DNA from: Candidatus Parcubacteria bacterium
GTDB lineage: Bacteria > Patescibacteriota > Minisyncoccia > Minisyncoccales > JAGLUP01
Length of the DNA: 64,000 nucleotides
Assembly (NCBI GenBank): GCA_023134715.1
Contig: JAGLUP010000004.1
Span: 1,301 to 65,300, forward strand
Direction: 5' to 3'
A program made the position numbers and the translations under genes. Shown here piece by piece: positions 1 through 62,974 of this stretch (positions are counted from its first letter, which is position 1; every line of letters starts with the position of its first letter). The notes beneath the pieces are model-generated. The model worked only from the letters and a program-made list of their open reading frames with translations. It did no database searches and was not told the DNA's origin.

Positions 1-3000
1 TTGAGATGACCAATGTCCAAGCTCTTTAAACAAGGCGCAGTCAATGTTTAAATCTCCGCCCGAACTAACATTTACATCGCTTTGATAGCTTGCGGAATTT
101 GTTTCTTCAATAACAGCGTTTCTGGTTAAGTTGATAATATAAGAGCCAGTGACATGAGTGTTGGAAAGATTCCCGGTTAAAGTAATTGTTGTTCCCGAAA
201 CACTTGAAATAGTCATTTTTTCTGATTCTCCGAAAGAGTTGCCGCCAACTCCGAGAATATCACCGGCAACCCAGCCGGTTGTATCTGAAGTTATTAAATC
301 AGCTTGACTTGAAGTAGCGTTTGAAGCAAGGGTTGTTTTATAATAACTAAGAACAGCCCCATACATATTTAAAGCCCCGCCGCTATTAACAGTTAAATCG
401 CAGGCGTCATCAGCGCTTGAATTAAATTTAAGAGCCGCTGTATAAGAAGACCCGATTCTGGCTCCGGAAGTTCCAATGCTCAAAGTCCCTGTAATAGAAG
501 TTGTACCGTTAGTAGTAAGAGAAGTATCAGTACTGTTAAGAAAAGTAAGCGTGCCGCCAGAGTTTATTGTCAAGCTTGAGGAGGTAGCGTTGCTAACATT
601 TACAGTTACAGTATGAGTGTCTAAAATTGTAACATCATCCGCTGAAGTTGGAACCACTCCGCCGCTCCAAGTTGAGGTTGCGTCCCAGTTCCCAGTTTGA
701 GCTGAAGATATTGCCGCGTCCACGGCAATCTGCCACGAACGAAGCTCCTTAAACACTAAACTGTCACTATGAAATTCAAGAGGTCCCAGCAAATATAAGT
801 AGGGGCTGATGTCTGGCGCGTCAAATTGATATTTTAATTCATACTCTTCCCCCGCTTCCCAATCAACCTGCCATATAATTTCTTTTGTATTTTCGTGTGG
901 TTTCGTGTTCAGTTTCGTGCCTGTTTCGTGTACTACCTCAAAGCTCGCAGGCGCACTTTCTATTACCTGCCCGACGAAATCTTCATTCGCCTTAATTTTT
1001 AATGTTACCTCATAAAACGCCGGGGGATAAATCCTTGTCGGCCCGATTCTCTCAACATCAAAAGCAACCGATTCACGAACCTCAAAAGAGTCAAAAATTT
1101 CACGAACGCCGTTTCGGGTAATCGCTGTTAAATAGAGCTCATATAATCCCAACTCATCCGGGATATCATAATATGCATAGTAATCAGGGGTATTGGTAAT
1201 AGTGCTTGGCCCGCATTCTGAACTTCTCTGAATTGTTTCGTCTTCAGTTGAAAATTCCTTCTCAACTCCTGCCGGACTTTTTACTATCAGAGTCAAATCA
1301 GCGTTGCAAATTGTTTTTCCAATATCATCTAGTACTCCCATTTGAATATAAGCAGAGCTGTCACTGCCTGATAGATATATCGACTTGTTTATATTTATAG
1401 CTAAAACCCCCCATGTAAAATCTTGTTCTGAAATCAATATCGCTTCATCAGTTTCAATCTCAATCTCCATCTTCCATTTGCCCGGATAAAAATCTCTTCC
1501 CGGTTTTGGAATTTTTATTTCAAACCCTTGTTTATTATCAATAAATTTAGTAATCACATGGGCTTCAATTAAAGATTCCTGGCCCATAGGGTTAAAAATT
1601 TTAATTCTGAAATTATTCGGTTCTACTTGAGCCGCAACTTGAGGAACAAAAACAATTTTCTTAATTGCTTTTTTCATCGCCCCTATTATTTCCCCGCCCG
1701 CCTGATTGTCCTCAGGACTTTCGGCGGGTTCCGTGGTTGTGGCTATCTCTTCTGTAGTAGTTGCCACTGCTTCCATGGTCTTAGCTTCCTCGCCCGCCTG
1801 ATTGTCCGCCCCGTAGGGAACCGCAGGTTCTCCTTCGGGGTCTGGACTTTCGGCGGGCTCAATAATAATTATTTCATTCTGCGCAGGAGTATCGGTTTCA
1901 AGAATGCTGTCGTCAGGCAAAGCTGGCTCCCCGCCCGCCTGATTGTCCGCAGGACTTTCGGCGGGCTCGCCATCTTCTCGATTAAAAATTGGTTCTAAAA
2001 CATTTTCAATAACTTCTTCAACTATCCCGTCAATAAATTCTTTTATCGGCTCAATTATTGAAGCTGTTCTTGTTTCTTGATTCTTATAAAACTCGCCTTC
2101 TATAATTTCCGCCTCGTTAACATTAACAAGTTCTTGAAGCTGCTTGACTGTAAATTCTGGTTCTTTAATTACAAAAACCGGCTCTTCATTAGAATGAAAA
2201 CTTTTCTCGCCAAGAGGAGAAATCAATAAATGACTATCTTTAATCCTTATTCTTGGCTTGTCTTTTGTGTCGATTTCATGTTTAGTTTCGTTTTCTTTCG
2301 TGTAGCTCGCCTCCACCCAGACACTGTCAAGATAAGCCGTAATATTTGTTTCGCCTCCCACTGTTCCATCAAACTTAATTTTTAAATTTTTAATGCCTTC
2401 TTCACTTTTTAAAAGAGGAGCTTCGTATTCAAAATAGCCATGATTTAAAGCATTAGACAAGGGAGAAGAAGAAATAATCCCGAGCTTATCCCATGATTCG
2501 CCATCTAAGGAATACCAGATAATAATCTTATCATCAATGTTAGATAAAACCTCCGGATGTTCGTCCTCTATATTTTCTTCAGCTTCAACTATTATTAAAT
2601 CTCCAATCCCCTTAACCGCTTCTTCAAATTTGCTTCCCCAAGTTTTAATTCGGCTTATTGATTTTTTGAAAGAATTCCAAAAGCCCACTGGCTCTTCTAA
2701 TAAAATGTCCTGTTCTTTTTCACCAAGAGCAAAAGAAAATTTAATTTTTGCTGATTGAAAAACTTTATTTTCCTGAGCTTGAACTAAACCTATGGAACCA
2801 AAAATATTTTTTAATTCCCTTTTCGCTTTCTCAAAAAATGAAATCGGCTCATCAGAAATTACTGGCTCAGAAATAATTTCATCAGCTGCTTCTATCTCTT
2901 CTGTCGTTGTTGCCTCTATTGTCTCCTCAATAATAATTATTTCATTCTGCGCAGGAGTATCGGTTTCAAGAATGCTGTCGTCAGGCAAAGCTGGCTCCCC

Positions 3001-4047
3001 GCCCGCCTGAATATCTGCCCCGCCTGCATCGCTATGCGAAGCATTGCGGGCAGGAAGATTTTCGGCGGGTTCCGTGGTTGTGGCTATCTCTTCTGTTGTT
3101 GTAGCTATCTCTTCTGTTTCACTGACCTCCTCTATCGCCACATCCTCTTCTACCTCAGTTAATTCTTCCACAAATTCATCAATGCCAGTATCTGTCTCAA
3201 CATCGTCATCACTCAACTCTTCACTGACAAACTCTCCGCATATTAATGTAAGCGCCCCTGTTTTATAAACAGCTGAATTTGCTTCAGAAAAATTATTAAT
3301 ATCTCCATTGGACAAAACATCAGGCGGCCCTTGCGCATTTTCTGAATTTTGCCAACCACCCGTAAATTGAGTCGGATAAAAATTAATAATCTCTGTCTCC
3401 CCTCCTGTAATGGCCGTGATAACAGAATTTTGTAAAAATTTTATAGGAGCAAAACCAGAAAGTAAAAACAATACTACAAAAGCCGCTAAAGCAAATCTCC
3501 AACCAAATTGAAAAGTTTTTATAGTTTTTATATGTTTAATCCACGGGATTAAACAATTTTTAATTTCTGAAATTTGCTTTTTTAATTTTTTAAACGCAAC
3601 TACTTTAAACGCAACCACAGGAATAGGAACTGACACACGTCGGGTCTGTGTTAATTTTAAGGTTTTTCTATTTTTATATTCCATCACTGCTCTTTTTGTA
3701 GTTTGTAAAGAAACTCCAGAATAAGCTTTTCTTCCTTTGAGCTTTCCCTCGCGAATCAAAAAACCAATATAGTCAGAACTATAACCAGAAATTTTTGCCG
3801 CTTGTTTTAAAGAAAGATATCTTCTCCTCAATAAAGAAGAAGAATCTCGGGTAGCGAGATTTTTTGTTTTTTTACAGCATTTTATTATCTCTTTTGGAGT
3901 AATTTTCCAAGAACTTTTAAGAGAAATTTTTCTCCCTTTTATTTTTTTCTCCCGAATTAAAAAACCAATATGGTCAGAGCTATAACCAGAAATTTTTGCC
4001 GCTTGTTTTAGAGAAATATATTTACTTTTTTCTTTGTTTTCTTTCAT
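1..4047 (-). CDS. Giant membrane-anchored surface protein, C-terminus off-window (>=1349 aa)
   Basis: The minus-strand frame appears open from ATG (4047-4045) to the window edge; I translated it only in part by eye. It is probably missing from the ORF track because no stop lies in the window. The N-terminus has two HTH-like repeats (YISLKQAAKISGYSSDHIGFLIREKKIKGRK / YLSLKQAAKISGYSSDYIGFLIREGKLKGRK), then one hydrophobic helix (FGWRFALAAFVVLFLLSGFAPI), then an acidic T/E/D-rich linker. The distal part (SSAQTGNWDATSTWSGGVVPTSADDVTILDTHTVTVNVSNATSSSLTINSGGTLTF) looks like parallel beta-helix adhesin repeats. Confidence 0.8.
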   Translation of the reverse strand, partial: MKENKEKSKYISLKQAAKISGYSSDHIGFLIREKKIKGRKISLKSSWKITPKEIIKCCKKTKNLATRDSSSLLRRRYLSLKQAAKISGYSSDYIGFLIREGKLKGRKAYSGVSLQTTKRAVMEYKNRKTLKLTQTRRVSVPIPVVAFKVVAFKKLKKQISEIKNCLIPWIKHIKTIKTFQFGWRFALAAFVVLFLLSGFAPIKFLQNSVITAITGGETEIINFYPTQFTGGWQNSENAQGPPDVLSNGDINNFSEANSAVYKTGALTLICGEFVSEELSDDDVETDTGIDEFVEELTEVEEDVAIEEVSETEEIATTTEEIATTTEPAENLPARNASHSDAGGADIQAGGEPALPDDSILETDTPAQNEIIIIEETIEATTTEEIEAADEIISEPVISDEPISFFEKAKRELKNIFGSIGLVQAQENKVFQSAKIKFSFALGEKEQDILLEEPVGFWNSFKKSISRIKTWGSKFEEAVKGIGDLIIVEAEENIEDEHPEVLSNIDDKIIIWYSLDGESWDKLGIISSSPLSNALNHGYFEYEAPLLKSEEGIKNLKIKFDGTVGGETNITAYLDSVWVEASYTKENETKHEIDTKDKPRIRIKDSHLLISPLGEKSFHSNEEPVFVIKEPEFTVKQLQELVNVNEAEIIEGEFYKNQETRTASIIEPIKEFIDGIVEEVIENVLEPIFNREDGEPAESPADNQAGGEPALPDDSILETDTPAQNEIIIIEPAESPDPEGEPAVPYGADNQAGEEAKTMEAVATTTEEIATTTEPAESPEDNQAGGEIIGAMKKAIKKIVFVPQVAAQVEPNNFRIKIFNPMGQESLIEAHVITKFIDNKQGFEIKIPKPGRDFYPGKWKMEIEIETDEAILISEQDFTWGVLAININKSIYLSGSDSSAYIQMGVLDDIGKTICNADLTLIVKSPAGVEKEFSTEDETIQRSSECGPSTITNTPDYYAYYDIPDELGLYELYLTAITRNGVREIFDSFEVRESVAFDVERIGPTRIYPPAFYEVTLKIKANEDFVGQVIESAPASFEVVHETGTKLNTKPHENTKEIIWQVDWEAGEEYELKYQFDAPDISPYLYLLGPLEFHSDSLVFKELRSWQIAVDAAISSAQTGNWDATSTWSGGVVPTSADDVTILDTHTVTVNVSNATSSSLTINSGGTLTFLNSTDTSLTTNGTTSITGTLSIGTSGARIGSSYTAALKFNSSADDACDLTVNSGGALNMYGAVLSYYKTTLASNATSSQADLITSDTTGWVAGDILGVGGNSFGESEKMTISSVSGTTITLTGNLSNTHVTGSYIINLTRNAVIEETNSASYQSDVNVSSGGDLNIDCALFKELGHWSSQ
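1697..1728 (+). repeat. GC-rich palindromic element, copy 1 (inside giant ORF)
   Basis: CCCGCCTGATTGTCCTCAGGACTTTCGGCGGG. It has a 6-bp outer stem, an internal loop, a 4-bp inner stem and a triloop. Confidence 0.85.
1793..1857 (+). repeat. GC-rich palindromic element, copy 2 (expanded, nested hairpin)
   Basis: It has the same CCCGCCTGATTGTCC...GGACTTTCGGCGGG termini, with an inserted CCCCGTAGGGAACCGCAGGTTCTCCTTCGGGG hairpin. Confidence 0.8.
1858..1942. repeat. 85-bp direct repeat inside the giant ORF (partner at 2926..3010)
   Basis: The string CTCAATAATAATTATTTCATTCTGCGCAGGAGTATCGGTTTCAAGAATGCTGTCGTCAGGCAAAGCTGGCTCCCCGCCCGCCTGA is identical at both sites. A second ~37-bp repeat lies at 1719-1755 / 3059-3095. 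Confidence 0.9.
1934..1965 (+). repeat. GC-rich palindromic element, copy 3
   Basis: CCCGCCTGATTGTCCGCAGGACTTTCGGCGGG. Confidence 0.85.
3002..3069 (+). repeat. GC-rich palindromic element, copy 4 (divergent, expanded)
   Basis: CCCGCCTGAATATC...GATTTTCGGCGGG with a nested GC hairpin (CCCCGCCTGCATCGCTATGCGAAGCATTGCGGGCAGG). Confidence 0.7.
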
Positions 4048-5311: not shown

Positions 5312-6898
5312 CTAAAAAGAAATTTCAAGGGCAGTGGCTACACTAGCTAAAAATTGTTTGATTGTTTCAAAAAATGTTTGCGGTTCCTCAAAAAAAGGAG
5401 CTGCTTCTTCTGACTGTGGTTCTTGCATAGGCGCAAATTCTTTTTGAGGCATCATCATACCTTGTTCTGGAGGTGTCATTTCTATATATCCTTCTGGAGG
5501 TGTCATTTCTATATATCCTTCTGGAGGTGTCATTTCTATATATCCTTCTGGAGGCGTCATCATTTGTTTCATTTTCTCTGCGTCTTCCGAACTCATCATG
5601 CCTTCTTTGACAGAAAAATTAAAACATTCTTCCATATGTTCAGGATTATCGCAATACGCTTTGCATTCTTCCGGCGTCTGACAACCGCCCGGACCGCCTG
5701 GACCCTCTGGTCCAATTTTTTTAACCATTTCAACTTCTTCCGGCTTTACTAATCCCATTTTCTGACCAAATTCCATACATTCCTGCATATGTTCCGGGTC
5801 TTGACAATAAGCATCACATTCTTCCGGCGTCTGACAACCGCCCGGACCGCCCGGACCGCCAGGCCCAAATTGTTCTCCTATTTTTTTTGTCTCTTCTGCT
5901 TCTTCAGAACTCATAAACCCGGCTTTAACAGCAAATTCCATACATTCCTGCATATTATCAGGATTATTACAATATGCTTCGCATTCCTCTTTTCCCTGAC
6001 ATCCGCCAGGACCGCCAAAAATTCCTGCTTTCGCCATCTTCCTTACTTGTTCTGCTTCTTCAGAGCTCATAAACCCGGCCGCCTCGCCAAAATTAACACA
6101 CTCTTCCATATGCTCTGGCTGGGAACAATAGATGTCGCATTCTTGTTTGTTTCCACACATCGGCGGTTTAATGCCTTTTTCCAATGCCTGAAGCATCATT
6201 CTTGCCTCTTTTTCTTCCTCTGCCGGCATAAGTCCATACTTAAGACCAAACTCTATACACTCTTTCATATGGTCTGGGTTATTACAATAAGCATCGCATT
6301 CCTCTTTTCCCTGACATCCGCCTGGTCCTTTCCCTCCGGTCTTACGAATCATTCCTGCTTCTTCAGAGCTCATAAACCCGGCCGCCTCGCCAAAAGTAAT
6401 ACATTCTTCAAGATGTTCTATCTGAGAGCAATAAATATCACACTCTTGTTTTCCGCGGCAAGGAGGTGGTTTTACTCCTTTTTTAATCGCTATTAGAGCT
6501 TGTTCTGCTTGGGCAAGTTCTTCCGGGGGAATCAAGTTATGCTCTTTGCCAAAAATAATACACTCTTCCATATGCTCCGGCTCATCACAATATATCTCGC
6601 ACTCTTCCTGACCTTGACAGCCGCCTGGGCCAGCCATTGTCTCGAGCATCTCGAGCATTTTCCTGTCTTTTTCTATTTCTTCCTGAGAAAGTAAATTATG
6701 GGCTTCAGCAAAATCAAGACAGGCCTTAGTATTTTCTTCTAAATCGCAATATGCCTCACATTCCTCCATACTGACGCAATTTCCTAATTCAGGAATAGGA
6801 AAATTAACATCAGATAGCAAATCCTCCTCAGCAAACGCAAAACCGCAAAAACCTAAAAAAATAAAAGTAAAAATAAAAACAAAATAAACCTTTTTCAT
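5312..6898 (-). CDS. Secreted cysteine-rich repeat protein (8 x four-Cys module; C-terminal TPPEGYIEM x4)
   Basis: A signal peptide (MKKVYFVFIFTFIFLGFCGFAFA) is followed by eight repeats of about 45-55 aa, of the form (GPGG)C-x4-5-C-x3-C-x8-9-C, e.g. GPGGCQGKEECDAYCNNPDHMKECIEFG. A proline/glutamate-rich tail follows. Confidence 0.85.
   Translation of the reverse strand: MKKVYFVFIFTFIFLGFCGFAFAEEDLLSDVNFPIPELGNCVSMEECEAYCDLEENTKACLDFAEAHNLLSQEEIEKDRKMLEMLETMAGPGGCQGQEECEIYCDEPEHMEECIIFGKEHNLIPPEELAQAEQALIAIKKGVKPPPCRGKQECDIYCSQIEHLEECITFGEAAGFMSSEEAGMIRKTGGKGPGGCQGKEECDAYCNNPDHMKECIEFGLKYGLMPAEEEKEARMMLQALEKGIKPPMCGNKQECDIYCSQPEHMEECVNFGEAAGFMSSEEAEQVRKMAKAGIFGGPGGCQGKEECEAYCNNPDNMQECMEFAVKAGFMSSEEAEETKKIGEQFGPGGPGGPGGCQTPEECDAYCQDPEHMQECMEFGQKMGLVKPEEVEMVKKIGPEGPGGPGGCQTPEECKAYCDNPEHMEECFNFSVKEGMMSSEDAEKMKQMMTPPEGYIEMTPPEGYIEMTPPEGYIEMTPPEQGMMMPQKEFAPMQEPQSEEAAPFFEEPQTFFETIKQFLASVATALEISF
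5467..5560. repeat. 27-bp tandem repeat x3.5 (coding)
   Basis: CTGGAGGTGTCATTTCTATATATCCTT is repeated. It encodes the (M)TPPEGYIE repeats of the Cys-rich protein. Confidence 0.9.
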
Positions 6899-9262: not shown

Positions 9263-9270
9263 ATATTATA

Positions 9271-9374
9271 GAAAACGCAGAAAACCAATTTTCTAAATCG
9301 TGGGGCCCCGCCTTGGCGGGGTAGGGCGCGGTTAGGGGGAAACGATTTAGGAAATTAGGTTTTCGGAGTTTTCG
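9271..9374. repeat. Structured intergenic repeat, family A, copy 1
   Basis: A ~30-bp inverted-repeat stem (GAAAACGCAGAAAACCAATTTTCTAAATCGT / ACGATTTAGGAAATTAGGTTTTCGGAGTTTTC) flanks GGGGC-[CCCGCCTTGGCGGG]-GTAGGGCGCGGTTAGGGGGA. Confidence 0.85.
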
Positions 9375-9440
9375 TAAGTTTAATTTGCTTTATTAAAGTA
9401 TACCAAACTTCAAAACGCAAAACAACAAGCTATTTAAAAT

Positions 9441-9479
9441 TATCCTATTTCATCCACGGCCGTGGATGAAATAGGATAA
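9441..9479 (-). terminator. Long perfect palindrome downstream of the prs-like gene
   Basis: TTATCCTATTTCATCCACGG/CCGTGGATGAAATAGGATAA, followed by a U-run on the minus strand (ATTTTAAA). Confidence 0.5.
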
Positions 9480-12094: not shown

Positions 12095-12373
12095 TTATTT
12101 TTTTATAATTTTTATTGCTTTGCCTTGTATTAATGCCTCTGTTATTTTCTTGCGGGCGGAGATTAAAGTTCGCTGAAGAGTGCTTTGAGAAATTTTCATT
12201 TTCTTGGCAGCTTTAATTTGTTTTAAAGCTTTTAAATCACACAATCTAATCGCTTCTAATTCATCTACACTCAAATTCACCTCTTCTAATATGGAAAGCG
12301 GCACAGCTCTCGGCTTAAAATAAGTAATATTTGGGTTAAACAAAACCCTTCTTGGTTTTATTGGCCTTGGCAT
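12095..12373 (-). CDS. DUF134 (UPF0251) putative DNA-binding protein
   Basis: The MPRPIKPRRV... start and a C-terminal HTH-like ISQSTLQRTLISARKKI. Confidence 0.7.
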   Translation of the reverse strand: MPRPIKPRRVLFNPNITYFKPRAVPLSILEEVNLSVDELEAIRLCDLKALKQIKAAKKMKISQSTLQRTLISARKKITEALIQGKAIKIIKK

Positions 12374-13212
12374 ATTTTTAATTCATCGTAAATATCTTTA
12401 ATCTCATTCTTTGCTTTTAGATTTGTTTCCATAATTGGCGTTAAATTGGAAATGGCTTGGAAGATTTTTTTATCATAAGATATTTTGCCTAAAAATTTAC
12501 CTCGGGCCCATTTTTCCATTCTATTGCTAAATTTTGGATTTATATCCCATTTATTGACCACTACGCCATAAGGAATTTTAAAATGATTAACCACTTCTAA
12601 AACCCTTTTTAAATCAGCAAACCCTGAAGGAGTCGGCTCTGTGATTAAAATAGTAAAATCAGCGTCTTTTAATGCCGCGGTTACCGGACATCCTGTGCCA
12701 GGAGCTGAATCAATAATCATAATAATTTTTCCTTTGTCCGCCATAGCTTTAGCGGCGGCGGATGCTTCGCTTTTTATCTCGTCCACAACCTTGCCTGAAC
12801 CTGTTTCTCCTGGAAAAAGCTGGCCAGAAACCAAAGGAAAATTATACCTTGTCCTTTTAATCCTGATTTCTCCATTCTGAACCGGCTTTAATTTAATAGC
12901 TCCTTTCGGACAAATAACCTCGCAAGCGCCGCAACCCTCGCATAAAAACGGATTTAACGCAGGTTTACCCTGAGGCGTCAACCGAAGGGCGCTAAAGCGA
13001 CAATTCTCAACGCATAATCCGCAGCCATCACATTTTTTATAATCAATCTCTGGTTTTGCGGAAGTAATAACCGGAATAATTTTATCCCAGCTTTTTATTC
13101 CTCCCAACCAAAGAGCTAAATTTGGAGCGTCAGCATCGCAATCCACTGCCACTACTTTTCTTTCTTTAGCAAAAAGCATTGCCAGCGCTGAAGTCAACAT
13201 TGACTTTCCCAC
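12358..13212 (-). CDS. MinD/ParA-superfamily P-loop ATPase with 2x[4Fe-4S] ferredoxin insert (COG1149-like)
   Basis: CDGCGLCVENC and CEGCGACEVIC motifs. The P-loop (ASGKGGVGKS) is encoded upstream of the track's GTG start. The frame is open up to 13266 but contains no ATG/GTG/TTG. Confidence 0.8.
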   Translation of the reverse strand: MGKSMLTSALAMLFAKERKVVAVDCDADAPNLALWLGGIKSWDKIIPVITSAKPEIDYKKCDGCGLCVENCRFSALRLTPQGKPALNPFLCEGCGACEVICPKGAIKLKPVQNGEIRIKRTRYNFPLVSGQLFPGETGSGKVVDEIKSEASAAAKAMADKGKIIMIIDSAPGTGCPVTAALKDADFTILITEPTPSGFADLKRVLEVVNHFKIPYGVVVNKWDINPKFSNRMEKWARGKFLGKISYDKKIFQAISNLTPIMETNLKAKNEIKDIYDELKICQGQ

Positions 13213-13270
13213 TCCCCCTTTTCCACTCGCAATTGTAATTTTTTTTATTTCTTTTTTGATGTATATTTAT

Positions 13271-13376
13271 AAAAACGAAGAAAACAAATTTTGAAATCGT
13301 GGGGCATCCCGATAGGTGAAAGCTATCGGGAGGTAGGGCGCGGTTAGGGGGAAACGATTTCAAAATTTAGTTTTCG
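13271..13376. repeat. Structured intergenic repeat, family A, copy 2
   Basis: It has the same arms and the same GTAGGGCGCGGTTAGGGGGAAACGATTT core as copy 1. The apical hairpin is replaced by CCCGATAGGTGAAAGCTATCGGG. Confidence 0.85.
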
Positions 13377-13382
13377 TAGTTT

Positions 13383-14225
13383 TTAAAATTTAAAATTAAG
13401 CAATTTACCTTTTGAATAAGCCCTTACTAATTCTTTAGAATAAGGAATTTCTTTTTTAATTTTTGTTTTAAATTTTTTAGCGATTTTTTCAACTTTTGTT
13501 TTATCTCCTAAGTCTGCCTGATTTAAAATTATTTTAATCGGTGTTTTAAGCTTTTGGCATAAATCCAAAATTAAACTTAAATCCATTGCTCCCATTGGCG
13601 TTGGTTCAGTAATAATATAAGCGAAATCAACATCTAAAAGAGCGTTAATTACAGGGCAATGAGTGCCAGCCGCCGTATCAAACAAAATATAATCTGCTTT
13701 TACTTTTTTAGCAAAATCTAAGGCAAATTTTTTTGTCTGAGCCACAACCGGCCCTGTTTCTTCAAGTCCTGCATTTGCTTGTCCTGTCGCCAACCAAAAA
13801 TTCTTCTCAATAGGATTAACAAAAATCTGGCCAATTTCTTGTTTTTGAGATTTAATAGCTTTATAAGGACAAACAATCCAGCACGCGCCGCAGCCAGAAC
13901 ATAAATCTTTAACAAATATCGGATATTTCCCTGCCTGTTGAAAAATAGCGTTATTTCGACAGGTTCTAGCGCACAGACCGCACTTTCTGCATTTTGATTT
14001 AATTAATTTTGGAAACTCCGCAAAAACCCTTTGCATCGGTTTTCTTAATTTCTGGCCAAGTAATAAATAGTCATTAGGGCATTCCACGTCACAGTCGCAA
14101 AGAATAACTTTCTTGCCTTTTTTTATTAATTTATTAGCAAATAAAACAGCGACCGTGGATTTTCCTACACCACCCTTGCCGCCGGAAATTGCTATCTGTT
14201 TAATTTTCTTTCGCATTATTCTCAA
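13383..14225 (-). CDS. MinD/ParA-superfamily P-loop ATPase with 2x[4Fe-4S] ferredoxin insert (paralogue)
   Basis: SGGKGGVGKST, CRKCGLCARTC and CSGCGACWIVC. Confidence 0.85.
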   Translation of the reverse strand: MRIMRKKIKQIAISGGKGGVGKSTVAVLFANKLIKKGKKVILCDCDVECPNDYLLLGQKLRKPMQRVFAEFPKLIKSKCRKCGLCARTCRNNAIFQQAGKYPIFVKDLCSGCGACWIVCPYKAIKSQKQEIGQIFVNPIEKNFWLATGQANAGLEETGPVVAQTKKFALDFAKKVKADYILFDTAAGTHCPVINALLDVDFAYIITEPTPMGAMDLSLILDLCQKLKTPIKIILNQADLGDKTKVEKIAKKFKTKIKKEIPYSKELVRAYSKGKLLNFKF

Positions 14226-16170: not shown

Positions 16171-16923
16171 TCAAGTTTTTATTCCGATTGGACAATGGTC
16201 TGAACCCATCACTTTATTGAGAATAAAAGCTTTTTTCAGCTTCATAGACATATTTTTTGAAACAAAAATATAATCCAATCGCCAACCCAAATTTCGCTCC
16301 CTGCAATTAGCAATATGCGGCCACCATGTATAATTTCCCGTTTTTTTATTAAATTTTCTAAAAGTATCGATAAACCCCATTTTAATTACTTTATCAATCT
16401 GCTTTCTTTCTTCTGAAGTAAACATTATATTCTTTTGATTTTGTTTCGGTCTCGCTAAATCAATTTCCTGATGGGCTACATTGAAATCTCCCACCAAAAC
16501 AATTTTTTGATTCTTAATTTTTTTCAAATAGTTTAAAAGATATTTATAAACTTCCAGCTTGTAACCTAAGTTTTCTTTTTGTCTTCCACCGTGCGGCAAA
16601 TAAATATTGATTAAAGTAAAATCAGGATATTTTAGTTTTAAAATCCTGCCCTCTTGGTCAAATCTTTTTAAACCTAATTTATTTTCTACTTTTAACGGCT
16701 TTTTCTTGGAATAAATCGCAACTCCAGAATAGCCCTTTTTAACGGCCTGATTAAAATAAAAATAATAACCCTTTGGCTGAAGCAAATCATCTGGCAGCTG
16801 CTCTTTTTGCGCTCTTATTTCCTGCAAGCAAACAATATCTGCTTTGGATTTTTTAAACCAATTCAAAAAATTCTTTTTACAAGCCGCTCTAATTCCGTTT
16901 ACATTCCAAGATATAATCTTCAT
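16171..16923 (-). CDS. xth: Exodeoxyribonuclease III
   Basis: MKIISWNVNGIRA..., CLQE, and SDHCP at the C-terminus. Confidence 0.9.
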   Translation of the reverse strand: MKIISWNVNGIRAACKKNFLNWFKKSKADIVCLQEIRAQKEQLPDDLLQPKGYYFYFNQAVKKGYSGVAIYSKKKPLKVENKLGLKRFDQEGRILKLKYPDFTLINIYLPHGGRQKENLGYKLEVYKYLLNYLKKIKNQKIVLVGDFNVAHQEIDLARPKQNQKNIMFTSEERKQIDKVIKMGFIDTFRKFNKKTGNYTWWPHIANCRERNLGWRLDYIFVSKNMSMKLKKAFILNKVMGSDHCPIGIKT

Positions 16924-16929
16924 TATCTT

Positions 16930-16938
16930 ATTCTACCA
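16930..16938 (-). promoter_or_regulatory. Extended -10 TGGTAGAAT, 6 nt from the xth ATG (leaderless type)
   Basis: Minus strand: TTTTTTGGTAGAAT-AAGATA-ATG. Confidence 0.5.
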
Positions 16939-16974
16939 AAAAACCGCCTGCTTAGCCAGTTTTACGTTTTACAC

Positions 16975-19741: not shown

Positions 19742-19785
19742 TTGTATAACACATATACCACGATCGTTGTATGTGTGTTATACAA
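19742..19785. repeat. 44-bp palindrome centred on CGATCG, copy 1
   Basis: TTGTATAACACATATACCACGATCGTTGTATGTGTGTTATACAA. Confidence 0.85.
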
Positions 19786-19851
19786 ATAAAAAATAAGAAT
19801 TGGGCTAAATTTTGCAAATTTCTCTCAATTTTTTTACAAGCTATAGAATAT

Positions 19852-21841: not shown

Positions 21842-21849
21842 ATTATTTT

Positions 21850-21858
21850 ATTCTACCA
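21850..21858 (-). promoter_or_regulatory. Extended -10 TGGTAGAAT, 8 nt from the obg ATG (leaderless type)
   Basis: Minus strand: hairpin, then TTTTTTGGTAGAAT-AAAATAAT-ATG. Confidence 0.5.
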
Positions 21859-21884
21859 AAAAATCGCCCTCTTGGCGATTTTTT
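21858..21884 (-). terminator. Intrinsic terminator of the csp gene
   Basis: AAAAAATCGCC-CTCTT-GGCGATTTTTT. Confidence 0.7.
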
Positions 21885-28879: not shown

Positions 28880-28984
28880 TTTTATTACTACAACTAAAGT
28901 ATACTTTTTATTTCATTAATGTATACTTCATACTATCAAAAAACCGCCCAAATGGCGATTTTTTATGTACAAACTCTTTATTTT

Positions 28985-35538: not shown

Positions 35539-36042
35539 TTATTTATAAACAGCAATTATTTGTCTTACGATTAACTCATTCGGCTTTATATATTCCCCTA
35601 TGAAATCAAACCACACTTTCATAAAATCATCTCTTTCCAGCTTTCTAATTTTTCCTATTTCAGGATCTTGAAGATGGATAAATTTATCATCAAGCCCAGC
35701 GACAACCGAGTAGTGTCCGTCAGCGACATCAGAATCAGAATAATCTTTTCTGCCCCTGGTAAACCAACCTACAATAACAGGAACTTTCCTATCAAGCCAT
35801 TTTTCAATGTCTTTAAAGCTGCTATTATTTTTTATTTTTACCTTGAAACCTAAGCATTTTGCCGCCTTTTTAATCCCCTTATCATCTATTCCTAAATCTT
35901 TATTCCATCCAGTCATTTCGGCTAATTCTTTTTCTGTTTTGTCTATCCCGTAATATTTCAGAACTATTTTCAAAGACGCAGGTCCGCACATTCCCGAATT
36001 AAGAGTTTCTTGAAATGGCTTAATATTTAATATTATTTTCAT
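35539..36042 (-). CDS. Peptidase C39-like (papain-fold) domain protein
   Basis: QETLNSGMCGPASLKIVLKYYG...DGHYSVVAGLDD...LQDP. The start is set at MKIILNIK, which lies 6 nt after a TGGTATAAT box. Confidence 0.6.
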   Translation of the reverse strand: MKIILNIKPFQETLNSGMCGPASLKIVLKYYGIDKTEKELAEMTGWNKDLGIDDKGIKKAAKCLGFKVKIKNNSSFKDIEKWLDRKVPVIVGWFTRGRKDYSDSDVADGHYSVVAGLDDKFIHLQDPEIGKIRKLERDDFMKVWFDFIGEYIKPNELIVRQIIAVYK

Positions 36043-36048
36043 ATTTTT

Positions 36049-36057
36049 ATTATACCA
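36049..36057 (-). promoter_or_regulatory. Extended -10 TGGTATAAT, 6 nt from the ATG (leaderless type)
   Basis: Minus strand: hairpin AAAATCGCCTTTTTGGCGATTTT, then TTGGTATAAT-AAAAAT-ATG. Confidence 0.5.
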
Positions 36058-36209
36058 AAAAATCGCCAAAAAGGCGATTTTCCTACAAGCTCCGGATAAG
36101 AAACCGCATCAAACTTAATGCTAGAGGCTATAAAAAATTAATTAAAAAACAAAAAATAATCTAGTAAACTAAATTTCTAGAATTCAATAAAGATGCCCCT
36201 TATATTCTT

Positions 36210-46299: not shown

Positions 46300-46303
46300 A
46301 AAA

Positions 46304-46440
46304 GAAAACGCAGAAAACAAATTTTTCAAGGCGAAAATTCTGTATTTTCTGAGACGCGTAGGGCTCCCTCCCGATAGGTGGAAGCTATCGGGATGGGATA
46401 AAGCGCGAAGAAAAGACAGAATTTGAGCAAGAAAAATTTT
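46304..46440. repeat. Structured intergenic repeat, family B copy 1 (preceded by a family-A-like arm)
   Basis: GAAAACGCAGAAAACAAATTTTT (the family A arm), then GCGAAAATTCTGTATTTTCTGAGACGCG-TAGGGCTCCCT-[CCCGATAGGTGGAAGCTATCGGG]-ATGGGATAAA-GCGCGAAGAAAAGACAGAATTTGAGC. Confidence 0.85.
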
Positions 46441-51039: not shown

Positions 51040-51657
51040 CTAATTAAATTTTTGTTTTATTGTTTCCTGAAAATATTTTTTAACTTCTTGCCAGTCAATT
51101 TCTTGAAGCATTATCGGCATTGGCTCGCTATCTGCTTCAACAAAATAAACCAAGCTTTTCAAAATATGAAGTTGATTATATTCTATCTTCTGATATTTTT
51201 TATTAAAAAATCGCATTAATTCAACCAAAGAACAATCTTTTAAAATAAAATATAAATCAATAAAATCCTTTTTAGCGCCTCTTGATGAAACTGCGTCTAA
51301 TTTCATACAAGCGATATCTCGCGGGTCAGCCAATTTAATCCCGCGCCATTTTACAAAAGGAAAAAGCAATTTATATGGATAACCCAAAAAACTTAACTTA
51401 ACATTATTTATTGTTAAATTAAGAGTGTTTTTTTCTTCGGAATCAATAATAATTTTGCCTAATTGCGCAAGGTCTTTTTTTAGTTTAGCTGTATCAAAAT
51501 CTTTTTGATTAAACCAATCCAAATCAATTGATTTTCTGTGCCCGTATTGAAGAGCTAAAGCCGTGCCGCCAGCTAAATAAAAATCTTTAATAATCTTGCT
51601 TTCAGTTAGTTTTGATAAAAGATTTTCAGTTTTTTGATTTATGACTTTTTTATGCAT
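51040..51657 (-). CDS. Nucleotidyltransferase AbiEii/AbiGii-family toxin (DUF1814-like)
   Basis: FYLAGGTALALQYGHRKSIDLDWF...DIACMKLDAVSSRGAKKDFIDLYFI. Confidence 0.75.
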   Translation of the reverse strand: MHKKVINQKTENLLSKLTESKIIKDFYLAGGTALALQYGHRKSIDLDWFNQKDFDTAKLKKDLAQLGKIIIDSEEKNTLNLTINNVKLSFLGYPYKLLFPFVKWRGIKLADPRDIACMKLDAVSSRGAKKDFIDLYFILKDCSLVELMRFFNKKYQKIEYNQLHILKSLVYFVEADSEPMPIMLQEIDWQEVKKYFQETIKQKFN

Positions 51658-55437: not shown

Positions 55438-55481
55438 TTGTATAACACATATAGCACGATCGTTGTATATGTGTTATACAA
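55438..55481. repeat. 44-bp palindrome centred on CGATCG, copy 2
   Basis: TTGTATAACACATATAGCACGATCGTTGTATATGTGTTATACAA. Confidence 0.85.
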
Positions 55482-55549
55482 AAACAAACAAAAAATAAAT
55501 TGGTTGACGTTGGGATTGACTTATTTTTATTGTTTGTTATTATGGAATA

Positions 55550-58777: not shown

Positions 58778-60478
58778 ATGTATAAATCAACAAAACACCA
58801 ACAATTTAAAAAACCAGATAACCTGCGAATTATTCCTCTCGGCGGGCTTGGCGAGGTTGGACGAAATATGACGCTTTTTGAATACAAAGGCAAGATTTTA
58901 ATTATTGACGTAGGCCTGCGAATGCCGGAAGAAGATATGCCGGGAATAGATTTTATTATTCCAGATATCAGCTATCTTAAGAAAAAACAAAAAAATATCC
59001 TAGGTATTGTCTTTACTCACGGCCATTATGACCACATCGGCGCTCTCCCCTATCTTGTTGAGAAATTAGGCAATCCCTTAATGTTTGCCTCCAAATTAAC
59101 TAAGGGAATTATCCTAAAAAGACAGGAAGAATTTCCTTTTAAGTCAAAGTTGGAAATTGTAGAAGTGGAAGATAAGTCCCGAATTAAATTAGGACCCTTT
59201 AAAATTGAATTCTTTCATCAAAACCACAACATTCCGGGCAATTTGGGTCTTTTTATTCAAACGCCAGCTGGAAATATTGTTCATACCTCTGATTTTAAAT
59301 TTGACAAAACTCCGATAAATGAAGCTCCTGTTGATTTTAATTATTTAGAACAAATAGGCAGGCAAAAAATTCTTCTCTTAATGTCTGATTCAACAGGGGC
59401 AGAAGAAAACGGGCGATCTCTTTCAGAAAGTGATATTTCTAAAAATTTAGAAGAAATTTTCAAAAACGCGCAAGGCAGAATTATTTCCGCCACTTTTTCT
59501 TCTTTAATTAATCGGATTCAGCAAATTATTTCTCTCTCGGAAAAATATAAAAGAAAAGTCGCAATAGAAGGATATTCAATGAAAAACAATATAGAACTCG
59601 CGAGGAATTTAGGATATCTTAAGATCAAAAAAGAAATTATTATTTCTACTAAAGAAATTAAAAATTATCCTGATTCCAAGGTAACTGTTCTCTGCACCGG
59701 CGCTCAAGGAGAAGGCCGCGCGGCTCTAATGAAAATCGCCAATAGAGAACACCGCATTCTGCGCCTGAAAAAAAATGACACAATTATTTTTTCATCCTCT
59801 GTTATCCCGGGAAATGAACGAACTGTCCAAATTTTAAAAGACGAACTCTACAGGCAAAAAGCAAAAGTTTTTCATTATAAAATGATGGATATTCACGCGG
59901 GCGGCCACGCCAAGCAAGAAGAACTGAAAAAAATGATACAGCTGATAAAGCCAAAATTCTTCCTCCCTATCCATGGCCAGTATTCTATGTTAGTAAGCCA
60001 TGCTGAACTTGCTCAAAGCGTTGGCATTCCTCAAAAAAACATAATAGTTATTGAAAACGGCCAAGCAATTGATTTGAATGTTCAAGGATTTTCTTTGGAT
60101 AAAAGAAAAATTCCTTCAAGCTATGTAATGGTTGATGGATTAGGAGTCGGAGACATAGGCGAAGTAGTATTGCGCGATCGCCAAGCGTTGGCTGAAGATG
60201 GAATGTTTGTTATAATTGTAGTTATTGACAGGCAAAAAGGCAAAGTCAAAGGAAGTCCTGATATAATCTCCAGAGGATTTGTTTATCTTAGAGAATCAAA
60301 AGGACTGCTTCAGGAAACCCGGAAAAAAGTAATTGAAATAGTTGACAAAGCAGCTGGAACAGGAGGCGCGGTAAACTGGGTTTATGTAAAAGATGAAATC
60401 AGAAACAAAATCGGCCAATTTTTCTTTTCTAAAACCAAACGCCGACCAATGATCTTGCCTGTAGTAATTGAGGTCTAA
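58778..60478 (+). CDS. rnj: Ribonuclease J (beta-CASP metallo-beta-lactamase)
   Basis: LRIIPLGGLGEVGRNM and HGHYDHIG. The start is set after the tRNA. Confidence 0.9.
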   Translation: MYKSTKHQQFKKPDNLRIIPLGGLGEVGRNMTLFEYKGKILIIDVGLRMPEEDMPGIDFIIPDISYLKKKQKNILGIVFTHGHYDHIGALPYLVEKLGNPLMFASKLTKGIILKRQEEFPFKSKLEIVEVEDKSRIKLGPFKIEFFHQNHNIPGNLGLFIQTPAGNIVHTSDFKFDKTPINEAPVDFNYLEQIGRQKILLLMSDSTGAEENGRSLSESDISKNLEEIFKNAQGRIISATFSSLINRIQQIISLSEKYKRKVAIEGYSMKNNIELARNLGYLKIKKEIIISTKEIKNYPDSKVTVLCTGAQGEGRAALMKIANREHRILRLKKNDTIIFSSSVIPGNERTVQILKDELYRQKAKVFHYKMMDIHAGGHAKQEELKKMIQLIKPKFFLPIHGQYSMLVSHAELAQSVGIPQKNIIVIENGQAIDLNVQGFSLDKRKIPSSYVMVDGLGVGDIGEVVLRDRQALAEDGMFVIIVVIDRQKGKVKGSPDIISRGFVYLRESKGLLQETRKKVIEIVDKAAGTGGAVNWVYVKDEIRNKIGQFFFSKTKRRPMILPVVIEV

Positions 60479-60489
60479 AATTTTTGAAT

Positions 60490-60578
60490 GCGAAAATTCT
60501 GGATTTTCTGAGACGCGTAGGGCTCCCTCCCGCCTTGGCGGGAAGGGATAAAGCGCGAAGAAAAGACAGAATTCGAGC
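60490..60578. repeat. Structured intergenic repeat, family B copy 2
   Basis: It has the same backbone as 46331-46428. The apical hairpin is replaced by CCCGCCTTGGCGGG. Confidence 0.85.
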
Positions 60579-60597
60579 AATGAAAAAAAAATAAACA

Positions 60598-61572: not shown

Positions 61573-61658
61573 AAATGGTTTGTCATATTTTATTGACTTT
61601 TGAAATTATTTTATTAGAATAAAATTAATAAATAATAAATAGTATCTTGAAAATAAAA

Positions 61659-61967
61659 ATGGCTGAATTGACATATGTTATTAAAGGACACGAGGGAAAG
61701 GAGGCAATAGATATTAACAAATTGCATGAATATCAAATTTTCGAAAAACAAAGCGGGAAGAAATTGAATGAAAAAGAAGTTACAGAGCTAATTGAGCGAC
61801 TAAGGAAACAGCTGAAAGAACCAGTGCCATGCTTAGTAAAGACAGATGGTTCATATCTTCCCTTAAATAAGATAAAAGTCGGAGATGAAGTGCTTGCTTG
61901 GGTATACCCGAAAAGTGGAGGAAGGCATACCGGAATACCGACAGATGCAATGATTATGGAAAAATAA
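61659..61967 (+). CDS. Hypothetical protein
   Basis: A 102-aa ORF followed by the terminator hairpin GCCGAAATCACTCGGCTCTTTTTT. Confidence 0.5.
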   Translation: MAELTYVIKGHEGKEAIDINKLHEYQIFEKQSGKKLNEKEVTELIERLRKQLKEPVPCLVKTDGSYLPLNKIKVGDEVLAWVYPKSGGRHTGIPTDAMIMEK

Positions 61968-62073
61968 ATAAGCCGAAATCACTCGGCTCTTTTTTATAAA
62001 AAAAGTATTTTTTATTCTTTATAGCCAATATTACAAAATCAACAACAAATCAAAACAAATCAACAACTTATAA

Positions 62074-62099
62074 CTCAAATACTTTACCTGCGGCCGCAG
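62074..62099. repeat. Half copy of the NotI-centred palindrome
   Basis: CTCAAATACTTTACCTGCGGCCGCAG. Confidence 0.85.
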
Positions 62100-62115
62100 A
62101 TCGTTTATAAAAAAT

Positions 62116-62865
62116 TTATTTGTAAAGATATTTTTTAAAAAATAAATAAGCCTCTTCTCCCTGCCAATCTTCTGGCAAAAGCTCTACGGGAAGCTGAGGG
62201 TCTCTGCTTAAAATAGACATATATTCAAAAATCATTTTCTCTGGTTTTTTCTTTTGAGCTTTTTTAATAAGCTCTTGATAATGATTGTTGATTTCTTTTA
62301 AATTCCAAATTTTATTAGCTAAAATCCTTGATTCTTCTCTGCCTACTTTATCGGAAACAGCTAAAATTACATAAATGGAAAGATTATATTCTTCAACAAT
62401 CTCTTCTGCTTCTTCTAAAAAATTAAAAGGGGATATCCACAAGCTGGCATGTAATTTGCCAAATCCTAATCGTTTCAAATTCTCTCTTAAAATCTCGCGA
62501 AACCTCTTCTTTTCTTCCGGAATGTCATAACTTACTAAATACCAATTTCCATCCCATTTTCTTTTTTCAAAATATTCTGGCAAAAAACCTTGTAATCTTT
62601 TCCTCCCCTCTTTCGTTAAAGTTAAATCATTTTTAATCCATCCCTTATGTTCAGCGTTATACATCGCGCGTTTTATAGTCAAATAATTAAACTTTTTTAA
62701 ATTTTTACTAGCTGAAAATGGCGCTCTTCCCAATCTTGCGGGAGAACCACTTGCGAAACCAACCTCGGACAGATAAAAAGCATTCCATAACACTAAATCC
62801 ACCAAAGAAGAAAAAACGCCCTCAGAAACCTTTAACACTATTTTAGAAATTTCTTTTCGTTTCAT
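62116..62865 (-). CDS. PaaX-like regulator (winged helix + Cas2/VapD-like C-terminal domain)
   Basis: WDGNWYLVSYDIPEEKKRFREILRENLKRLGFGKLHASLWISP is the PaaX C-domain signature as I recall it. Confidence 0.6.
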   Translation of the reverse strand: MKRKEISKIVLKVSEGVFSSLVDLVLWNAFYLSEVGFASGSPARLGRAPFSASKNLKKFNYLTIKRAMYNAEHKGWIKNDLTLTKEGRKRLQGFLPEYFEKRKWDGNWYLVSYDIPEEKKRFREILRENLKRLGFGKLHASLWISPFNFLEEAEEIVEEYNLSIYVILAVSDKVGREESRILANKIWNLKEINNHYQELIKKAQKKKPEKMIFEYMSILSRDPQLPVELLPEDWQGEEAYLFFKKYLYK

Positions 62866-62934
62866 CTTGTTTATCTTTATTTGCTCTATAGTCTATTACT
62901 TATTCTTTATTATTATAAACTATTACTCCTAAAC

Positions 62935-62974
62935 CTCAAATACTTTACCTGCGGCCGCAGGTAAAGTATTTGAG
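62935..62974. repeat. 40-bp perfect palindrome centred on GCGGCCGC
   Basis: CTCAAATACTTTACCTGCGG/CCGCAGGTAAAGTATTTGAG. Confidence 0.9.

Follow-up and report, generated by a model that had tools for sequence, protein, structure and literature searches.

Modular palindromic repeats, possibly MITE/REP-like, at gene junctions of a Candidatus Parcubacteria genome

The repeat elements and their surroundings

The window, i.e., the whole 64-kb stretch of Candidatus Parcubacteria DNA that was analysed, has 34.9% GC and carries housekeeping genes. Its left edge holds a giant surface-type protein with internal repeats (1600-3100); a Cys-rich protein of tandem repeats with a period of ~150-160 nt is encoded at 5312-6898 (- strand; 27-nt tandem repeats at 5438-5560), and assemblies differ by ~100 bp in this repeat region. 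A perfect palindrome with an 18-bp stem, TTATCCTATTTCATCCACGGCCGTGGATGAAATAGGATAA (9440-9479), follows the terminator of a PRTase gene, and its centre, CATCCACGGCCGTG, is conserved in the relative L006. Two copies (88% identical) of a near-perfect ~44-bp palindrome, TTGTATAACACATATACCACGATCGTTGTATGTGTGTTATACAA, are found at 19742-19800 and at 55438-55496, the latter in a divergent intergenic region where gene orientation switches. A gene for an AbiEii-type nucleotidyltransferase toxin (51040-51657) lies among the housekeeping genes. Further to the right are a C-terminal DHQS gene fragment (61647-61967) and a PaaX-like gene (62116-62865), the latter flanked by 31-nt repeats with hairpins (62069-62099 and 62930-62960); the relative L138 lacks the block 61647-62960 between trpS and its phosphoglucomutase gene. 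A module in which a GC hairpin is combined with a T-run and, 6-8 nt before ATG, an extended -10 (TGGTAGAAT) recurs in - strand intergenic regions (16922-16963, 21842-21883, 28922-28963, 36041-36082 and others). This distance of 6-8 nt is the usual one for -10 boxes of this genome, and it implies that most of the mRNAs are leaderless. GC skew was tried as a guide to the replication strand; it is negative throughout, about zero at + strand genes and without an origin switch at 55 kb, and as it is confounded with gene strand no replication strand is derived from it.

Two copies of one element lie on the + strand, here taken as the G-rich strand of the element: A1 at 9271-9373 and A2 at 13271-13384 (covariance-model E = 4.9e-23 and 4.6e-31). 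Each consists, as originally predicted, of a ~30-bp stem that carries a G-tract core, the same in both copies, and a GC hairpin that can be swapped; the end of A2 had been placed at 13376 and is moved to 13384, where its right arm (GTTTTCGTAGTTTTT) ends. In A1 the left arm (GAAAACGCAGAAAACCAATTTTCTAAATCGT, 9271-9301) pairs with the right arm (9342-9373) and contains an internal G.A/C-G/A.G triplet, a single T.G wobble and a bulged A. Between the arms lie a 5' G-tract, GGGGC (9302-9306), hairpin variant 1, CCCGC-CTTG-GCGGG (CCCGCCTTGGCGGG, 9307-9320), and the conserved core GTAGGGCGCGGTTAGGGGGAA (9321-9341). A2 has its core at 13333-13353 and a hairpin that differs as claimed, variant 2, CCCGATAG-GTGAAAG-CTATCGGG (CCCGATAGGTGAAAGCTATCGGG, 13308-13330). 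The core belongs to a 28-nt string, GTAGGGCGCGGTTAGGGGGAAACGATTT, whose only two occurrences are 9321-9348 and 13333-13360, both on the + strand (0 expected, 100 shuffles). The pairing of the inverted arms holds on folding: relative to shuffled sequence, the + strand of A1 and A2 has a minimum free energy (MFE) of -48.2 and -40.4 kcal/mol (z = -6.2 and -6.4) and the - strand one of -38.3 and -32.8 kcal/mol (z = -6.9 and -7.3). Predicted hairpin energies range from -22 to -56 kcal/mol by copy and strand.

The type A stem is A/T-rich, ~30 bp long and built of arms of the form GAAAAC-NNN-GAAAAC, so that the half-site GAAAAC occurs four times per element. Its tip, in the order GGGGC-(hairpin)-GTAGGGCGCGGTTAGGGGG, combines a conserved purine-rich core, GGGG...UAGGG-CGY-GG-UUA-GGGGG-AA, with an exchangeable GC hairpin. 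The arms of 30-32 nt are almost fully paired, i.e., they are terminal inverted repeats as in a MITE, and the elements are non-coding, 103-136 bp long and present in several copies, as MITEs are.

An absence of further copies elsewhere had been named at the outset as an outcome that would speak against the element, and a covariance model together with contig extension brought more copies to light. The model, built from three A copies and run on the window with filters off, found only A1 and A2 plus, weakly, a second type of element, B1 (E = 0.016), and left another such element, B2, unmatched; A1 and A2 are also the sole matches in the 64-kb window to the pattern AAAACNNNGAAAAC-N60-90-GTTTTCNNNGTTTT. 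A third A copy of the same genome, A4 (L141 4040-4159), lies ~4.7 kb right of the window end between rpoC and ftsK, with a third, longer hairpin variant (33 nt) and a single core change, CGC to CGT. Leftward extension of the contig gave giant genes only and no new copy. B1 and B2 were both detected by repeat scan and direct reading. B1 (46303-46438, + strand) fills the lemA-htpX spacer, and B2 (60478-60590, + strand) separates the stop codon of the RNase J gene from the trpS ATG. Type B has another stem and another core, CGCG-UAGGGC-UCCC-(hairpin)-GGGA-UAAAG-CGCG, and holds several modules in common with type A: hairpin variant 1 is the same 14-mer in A1 and B2 (60529-60542), the variant 2 stem is the same in A2 and B1 (46370-46392), and the motif GTAGGGC/UAGGGC occurs in both types. 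An A-type outer arm, GAAAACGCAGAAAAC (46304-46318), precedes B1; it is unpaired, as if B had displaced most of a resident A element. The B inner stem resembles the A arm in flipped orientation, a likeness limited to an 8-9-mer match. In all, five elements (three A and two B) were seen in ~83 kb of this genome, all with one chromosomal orientation, and one further element, A3, was seen in the relative L131. By hairpin type A1 matches B2 and A2 matches B1 in a nested order, which suggested the paired ends of islands; this idea was dropped because A4 has a third hairpin variant and the B1 site of L131 is occupied by an A-type element.

A metagenome scan with the arm pattern gave 120 loci, mostly GAAAAC tandem-repeat noise, with two convincing relatives, L113 and L035; as the loci were picked by arm pattern, their covariance-model scores are inflated by the arms. 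L113 (E = 5e-13; 65 bits on the G-rich strand and 41 on the other) has the core GGGGC-UUA-GGCGCGG-(hairpin)-AAGA-GGGG, i.e., the motif order of type A with the hairpin in the other linker, the hairpin-free linker being UUA in both. The GGGG of the 5' G-tract is invariant in A1-A4 and L113. L035 is a mix of A-like GGGCGCG and B-like GGGAUAAG. Both lie directly after a stop codon, L035 between convergent genes, with an A-run before the stem and a T-run after it, and by eye fit the layout of an intrinsic terminator. UUCG tetraloops were considered in both and set aside, as the register was ambiguous on re-reading. Scans for the exact core gave two chance matches in GTDB genomes and none in JGI metagenomes or viral contigs, and BLAST against phages and plasmids gave no matches. 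Full-text searches of the literature gave no paper on interspersed repeats in CPR/Patescibacteria.

The genes next to the copies of this genome are unrelated and of mixed orientation (genes for a beta-propeller protein, a CbiA ATPase, HtpX, TrpS and FtsK); an unclassified 145-aa ORF is found downstream of L113 and a gene for a 437-aa membrane protein beside L035. A constant sense-strand position upstream of related genes, as expected of a riboswitch or cis-leader, was not seen among these copies. A -10-like box in front of a - strand gene start had been reported to adjoin both A copies. Such boxes are indeed present at A1 and A2, and one also follows A3; the association is not constant, as A4, B1 and B2, three of the five copies, have no box. 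At A1 the box TATAAT (9265-9270, - strand) stands 2 nt ahead of an in-frame ATG and 8 nt ahead of the beta-propeller ATG at 9262, the one that aligns with the start of the orthologue; it could plausibly drive a beta-propeller mRNA that has no leader, or almost none. A1 itself lies between this ATG and an extended -10, TGGTATACT (9397-9405, - strand), which is conserved with L006 (TGGTATTAT) and would read through A1 on the C-rich strand. At A2 the box ATAAAT (13265-13270, - strand) is at the place of the relative's native ATGAAT start region. A2 itself has a CbiA/Fer4 ATPase gene on either side, and the one next to the box (12358-13248, - strand) has ATA where the orthologue has ATG, and no canonical start before the P-loop. 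Given the leaderless habit of this genome, a box beside an element may be a secondary adaptation or reflect an insertion preference.

Orthologous sites, conservation and covariation

Close relatives were fetched via the flanking proteins, and five flanking genes were compared codon by codon; they have 87-94% amino-acid identity with those of the relatives, and their fourfold-degenerate sites are 61-83% identical. All five element sites are polymorphic for insertion, four being empty in close relatives and one being occupied by the other element type. At the A2 site of L006 two CbiA/Fer4 ATPase genes overlap by 11 nt without an element, and when the A2 flanks are compared with this site the overlap region appears diverged on both sides. 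At the A1 site L006 keeps both the promoter (TGGTATTAT) and the beginning of the beta-propeller gene, and its leader carries no element. Only 4 nt separate the RNase J stop from the trpS ATG at the B2 site of L138 and L139. The A4 site of L138 reads AAAAAATGAAAAAG, i.e., an ATGA stop/start overlap of rpoC and ftsK; here the gene caller picked a later start, and both the overlap and the homology of L138 to the FtsK N-terminus of this genome are readings by eye. The B1 site of L131 holds the A-type element A3, with a variant 2 hairpin stem, whereas the site is a 15-nt spacer in L133 (the closest HtpX, 93%), a 6-nt spacer in L137 and an unrelated 131-nt spacer in L136. Another GC-rich, hairpin-rich spacer of ~150 nt lies upstream of htpX in another relative (L134 560-740 and L135 40-220), where it adjoins a gene for a 23S rRNA intervening-sequence protein.

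Over the span in which these species diverged, gene junctions have acquired, lost or exchanged elements. Some of these junctions lie just past a stop codon, others separate genes that in relatives overlap or almost touch, and others fall in a 5' leader. Presence and absence at orthologous sites could in principle also arise by repeated loss. This is unlikely because genes overlap at two of the empty sites, which argues for the gain of the element as the derived state. No position is conserved among close relatives, a behaviour like that of mobile DNA and not of gene-specific regulators. By eye, comparison of the flanks with the empty sites gave no clean direct repeat, i.e., no target-site duplication, at any copy.

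The core of A3, TAGGGCGCGGTTAGGGGGAAACG, is identical at 23/23 positions between the two species, and by our own calculation a 23-nt identical run has a chance of ~2e-4 at a neutral-site identity of ~0.7. Copies within this genome are no closer to each other than copies between genomes (identity 0.75 for A1-A2 and 0.87 for A2-A3), so that the family is old and its sites young. A test for covariation, which had been proposed as a check on the element, was run as a shuffle test on five sequences and found compensatory changes in the stem. In the alignment of A1-A4 and L113, 97.8% of the cells are paired and four pairs are changed on both sides; the covariation score was matched by 1/500 shuffles, and the signal was gone when the 3' partners were slid. 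Judged from these comparisons, conservation of the core is far stronger than neutral change would leave, and base pairing maintains the stem. For selection on pairing as such the five related sequences give moderate evidence, and arm-to-arm correction in a DNA hairpin could produce the same changes.

The two strands of the element give different signals. The genes that flank A1, A2, A3, A4, L113 and B1 have the C-rich strand as their sense strand, B2 being opposite. The G-rich strand has the lower MFE in every copy. Of the one-sided changes in the stem, all four, which look independent, give G.U when read on the G-rich strand; by eye, no such wobble arises at helical positions on the other strand, a count that is suggestive but not significant as a guide to the folded strand. 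The G-rich strand also has conserved purine.purine (G.A/A.G) oppositions in internal loops, and CUUG loops in two of the hairpin variants.

Mobile repeats or host structures

Taken together these observations favour the view that the elements form a new family of MITE/REP-like, modular, non-coding, interspersed palindromic repeats in a CPR genome that are gained at intercistronic junctions, and we put the probability of this at roughly 55%. Of the roles originally suggested, a REP/MITE-like element fits best with copies that are multiple, non-coding and bordered by inverted arms, that have unrelated neighbour genes, and whose sites are empty or different in close relatives in all five cases. 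It is conceivable that a trans-acting enzyme, encoded outside the 64-kb window, spreads the copies by recognising the folded hairpin and the core, and that the modules are shuffled by recombination between copies. Where an operon mRNA is read through, the hairpin may act as an incidental terminator, attenuator or transcript-end stabiliser. Incidental action as a terminator or stabiliser would explain the -10 box for a leaderless downstream gene after some of the copies.

Several points speak against a MITE/REP-like family. First, a target-site duplication was not definable for any of the copies. Second, ~60 ORFs of the window were compared with Pfam without a match to a transposase, a RAYT (Y1_Tnp, PF01797) or an integrase, and no autonomous partner is known. 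Third, an invariant core with covarying ends is the reverse of the classical MITE and more like a structured RNA. Fourth, the copies seen are five in one genome and one in a relative. Some other repeat systems were considered and rejected: the R'/R'' consensus of integron attC sites is absent and the neighbours are housekeeping genes, the KOPS motif (GGGNAGGG) matches A1 and A4 only, and there are no tandem arrays of the CRISPR, retron or TIGR-like kind.

The third point leads to a clearly less probable alternative, namely that the element is a structured RNA used by the host, the copies persisting by usefulness and not by movement. Such an RNA could be a C-rich-strand co-transcript at cistron ends, acting as a terminator, attenuator, 3'-end stabiliser or C-rich-loop regulator, or a separate RNA of the G-rich strand. 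The covarying stem and the core that is invariant across species agree with this, and to that extent the structured ncRNA of the original prediction stays a candidate. For a C-rich co-transcript speak the sense of the genes at A1, A2, A3, A4, L113 and B1, the position of L113 and L035 past a stop codon and before T-runs, like long intrinsic terminators, and the -10-like box for the next gene after A1, A2 and A3. For a G-rich RNA speak the G.U changes, the purine.purine oppositions, the CUUG loops and the lower MFE. The strand evidence is thus in conflict, gene sense pointing to the C-rich and fold quality to the G-rich strand. As to the latter, no consistent promoter was found when the flanks of the A copies, including A3 and A4, were read (A1 has a weak candidate and A2 none). 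As to the former, A1 and A2 were not called in a terminator scan, and B1 and B2, which have opposite orientations relative to their own genes, leave no room for a new promoter, so that expression of htpX and trpS requires read-through. A common gene context and conserved positions are also missing, as is an Rfam family: at the gathering score Rfam 15 gave four tRNAs only in the window, and at E up to 10 nothing that overlapped A1 or A2, the matches to B1, B2 and A4 being weak chance matches far below the gathering score. By eye, the hammerhead (the CUGAGA of type B lacks G8), twister, K-turn and loop E folds were rejected, as was a T-box or leader for trpS; Rfam likewise gave none of these.

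It is doubtful that the functional unit is instead a DNA or RNA G-quadruplex at the tip of the stem, serving as a strand-specific roadblock, switch or recognition structure. The proposed quadruplex would be two-tier, with four or five tracts and loops able to hold the hairpin. The four G-tracts noted on the + strand are present in both cores, which rank first (A1) and fourth by G4Hunter in a window of 35% GC (2.04 and 1.80) and are the sole + strand G-rich entries among the 15 top sites. The tracts are invariant in A1-A4, and three or four core differences fall between them (C/CAU/U, G/AGG/A and CGC to CGU), although with so few independent substitutions the contrast of tract and linker is not significant. 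The move of the L113 hairpin to the other inter-tract linker would also suit a quadruplex that tolerates varied loops. On the other side, ViennaRNA run with its G-quadruplex model preferred the quadruplex in no copy, one tract is only GG and so allows two tiers at most, type B lacks such tracts and yet occupies the same kinds of site, and a weaker candidate relative of the family, L126, is not G-tract rich. A bolder form of the idea, which we consider improbable, is that the invariant core folds into a two-tier G-quadruplex, with one G-tract to spare, on top of the 30-bp stem and accepts the hairpin at alternative loops, and that this module would be either the recognition structure of an undescribed CPR system for the mobilisation of single-stranded DNA or a strand-specific roadblock to transcription or replication that is spread by such a system. 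If so, the mobilisation system would set its elements precisely at operon stop/start junctions.

Finally, it is very improbable that the element is a promoter-proximal module, i.e., an operator or UP-like element for the downstream - strand gene, for while A1 and A2 border on -10-like boxes that precede gene starts by 2-8 nt and each element has its four GAAAAC half-sites, the box is missing at A4, B1 and B2, that of A2 sits at the native ATGAAT start region of the relative, the downstream genes are unrelated, and the same genes are expressed without the element in relatives.

Implications and comparison with known repeats

CPR genomes are small and tightly packed. The copies described here turn over between species whose flanking proteins are 87-94% identical, with the 23-nt core unchanged, and the family has split overlapping or abutting operon genes, leaving one downstream gene without a canonical start codon. 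It may therefore mark how genomes of an uncultured lineage have changed recently and serve as a natural test of the tolerance to a 100-nt hairpin between coupled genes, and the core together with the stem offers a defined sequence with which to seek a mobilising enzyme.

MITEs, e.g., the Correia/NEMIS elements of Neisseria, are non-coding, ~100-150 bp long, multi-copy, intergenic and polymorphic between strains, with long inverted arms. They often insert beside genes and are able to add promoter or terminator signals. The present elements are like them in size, in their inverted arms, in being intergenic and multi-copy, and in their presence or absence among close relatives. The termini of a MITE are its conserved, transposase-bound part, whereas here the centre is most conserved and the arms covary, no target-site duplication is defined and no cognate transposase is known.

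With long intrinsic or bidirectional terminators the family, through L113 and L035, has in common the position past stop codons, with an A-run before the stem and a T-run after it. It differs in that A1 and A2 were not called as terminators, that B1 and B2 need read-through, and that the conserved apical domain of 40-60 nt is not a terminator feature. The ERIC, BOX and RUP repeats too are modular, form stable predicted RNA hairpins, are co-transcribed with flanking genes and spread in an uncertain manner, but there is no evident sequence relationship and the phylum (CPR) is a different one. We know of no counterpart to a G-tract core with a relocatable hairpin.

REP/BIME sequences and REPINs are extragenic imperfect palindromes mobilised by RAYT (Y1/HUH) transposases. 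The elements described here are, at 103-136 nt, three to four times longer than a REP, which is an imperfect palindrome of 20-40 nt with a conserved GTAG at its 5' side, and have a long A/T stem; in type A the GTAG follows the hairpin on its 3' side, and A3 has ATAG instead. Unlike a REPIN they are no inverted doublet of two REPs, as the core is single and asymmetric and the conserved part is the tip and not the stem, and the window holds no RAYT gene. On the other hand, they are palindromes between operon genes with mosaic architectures made from common modules, as in REP/BIME, and the GTAG-GGC-hairpin of type B, a GTAG-like motif beside an imperfect GC palindrome, resembles that of REP. Their uniform chromosomal orientation is likewise that of the REP/RAYT system, as expected of single-strand mechanisms.
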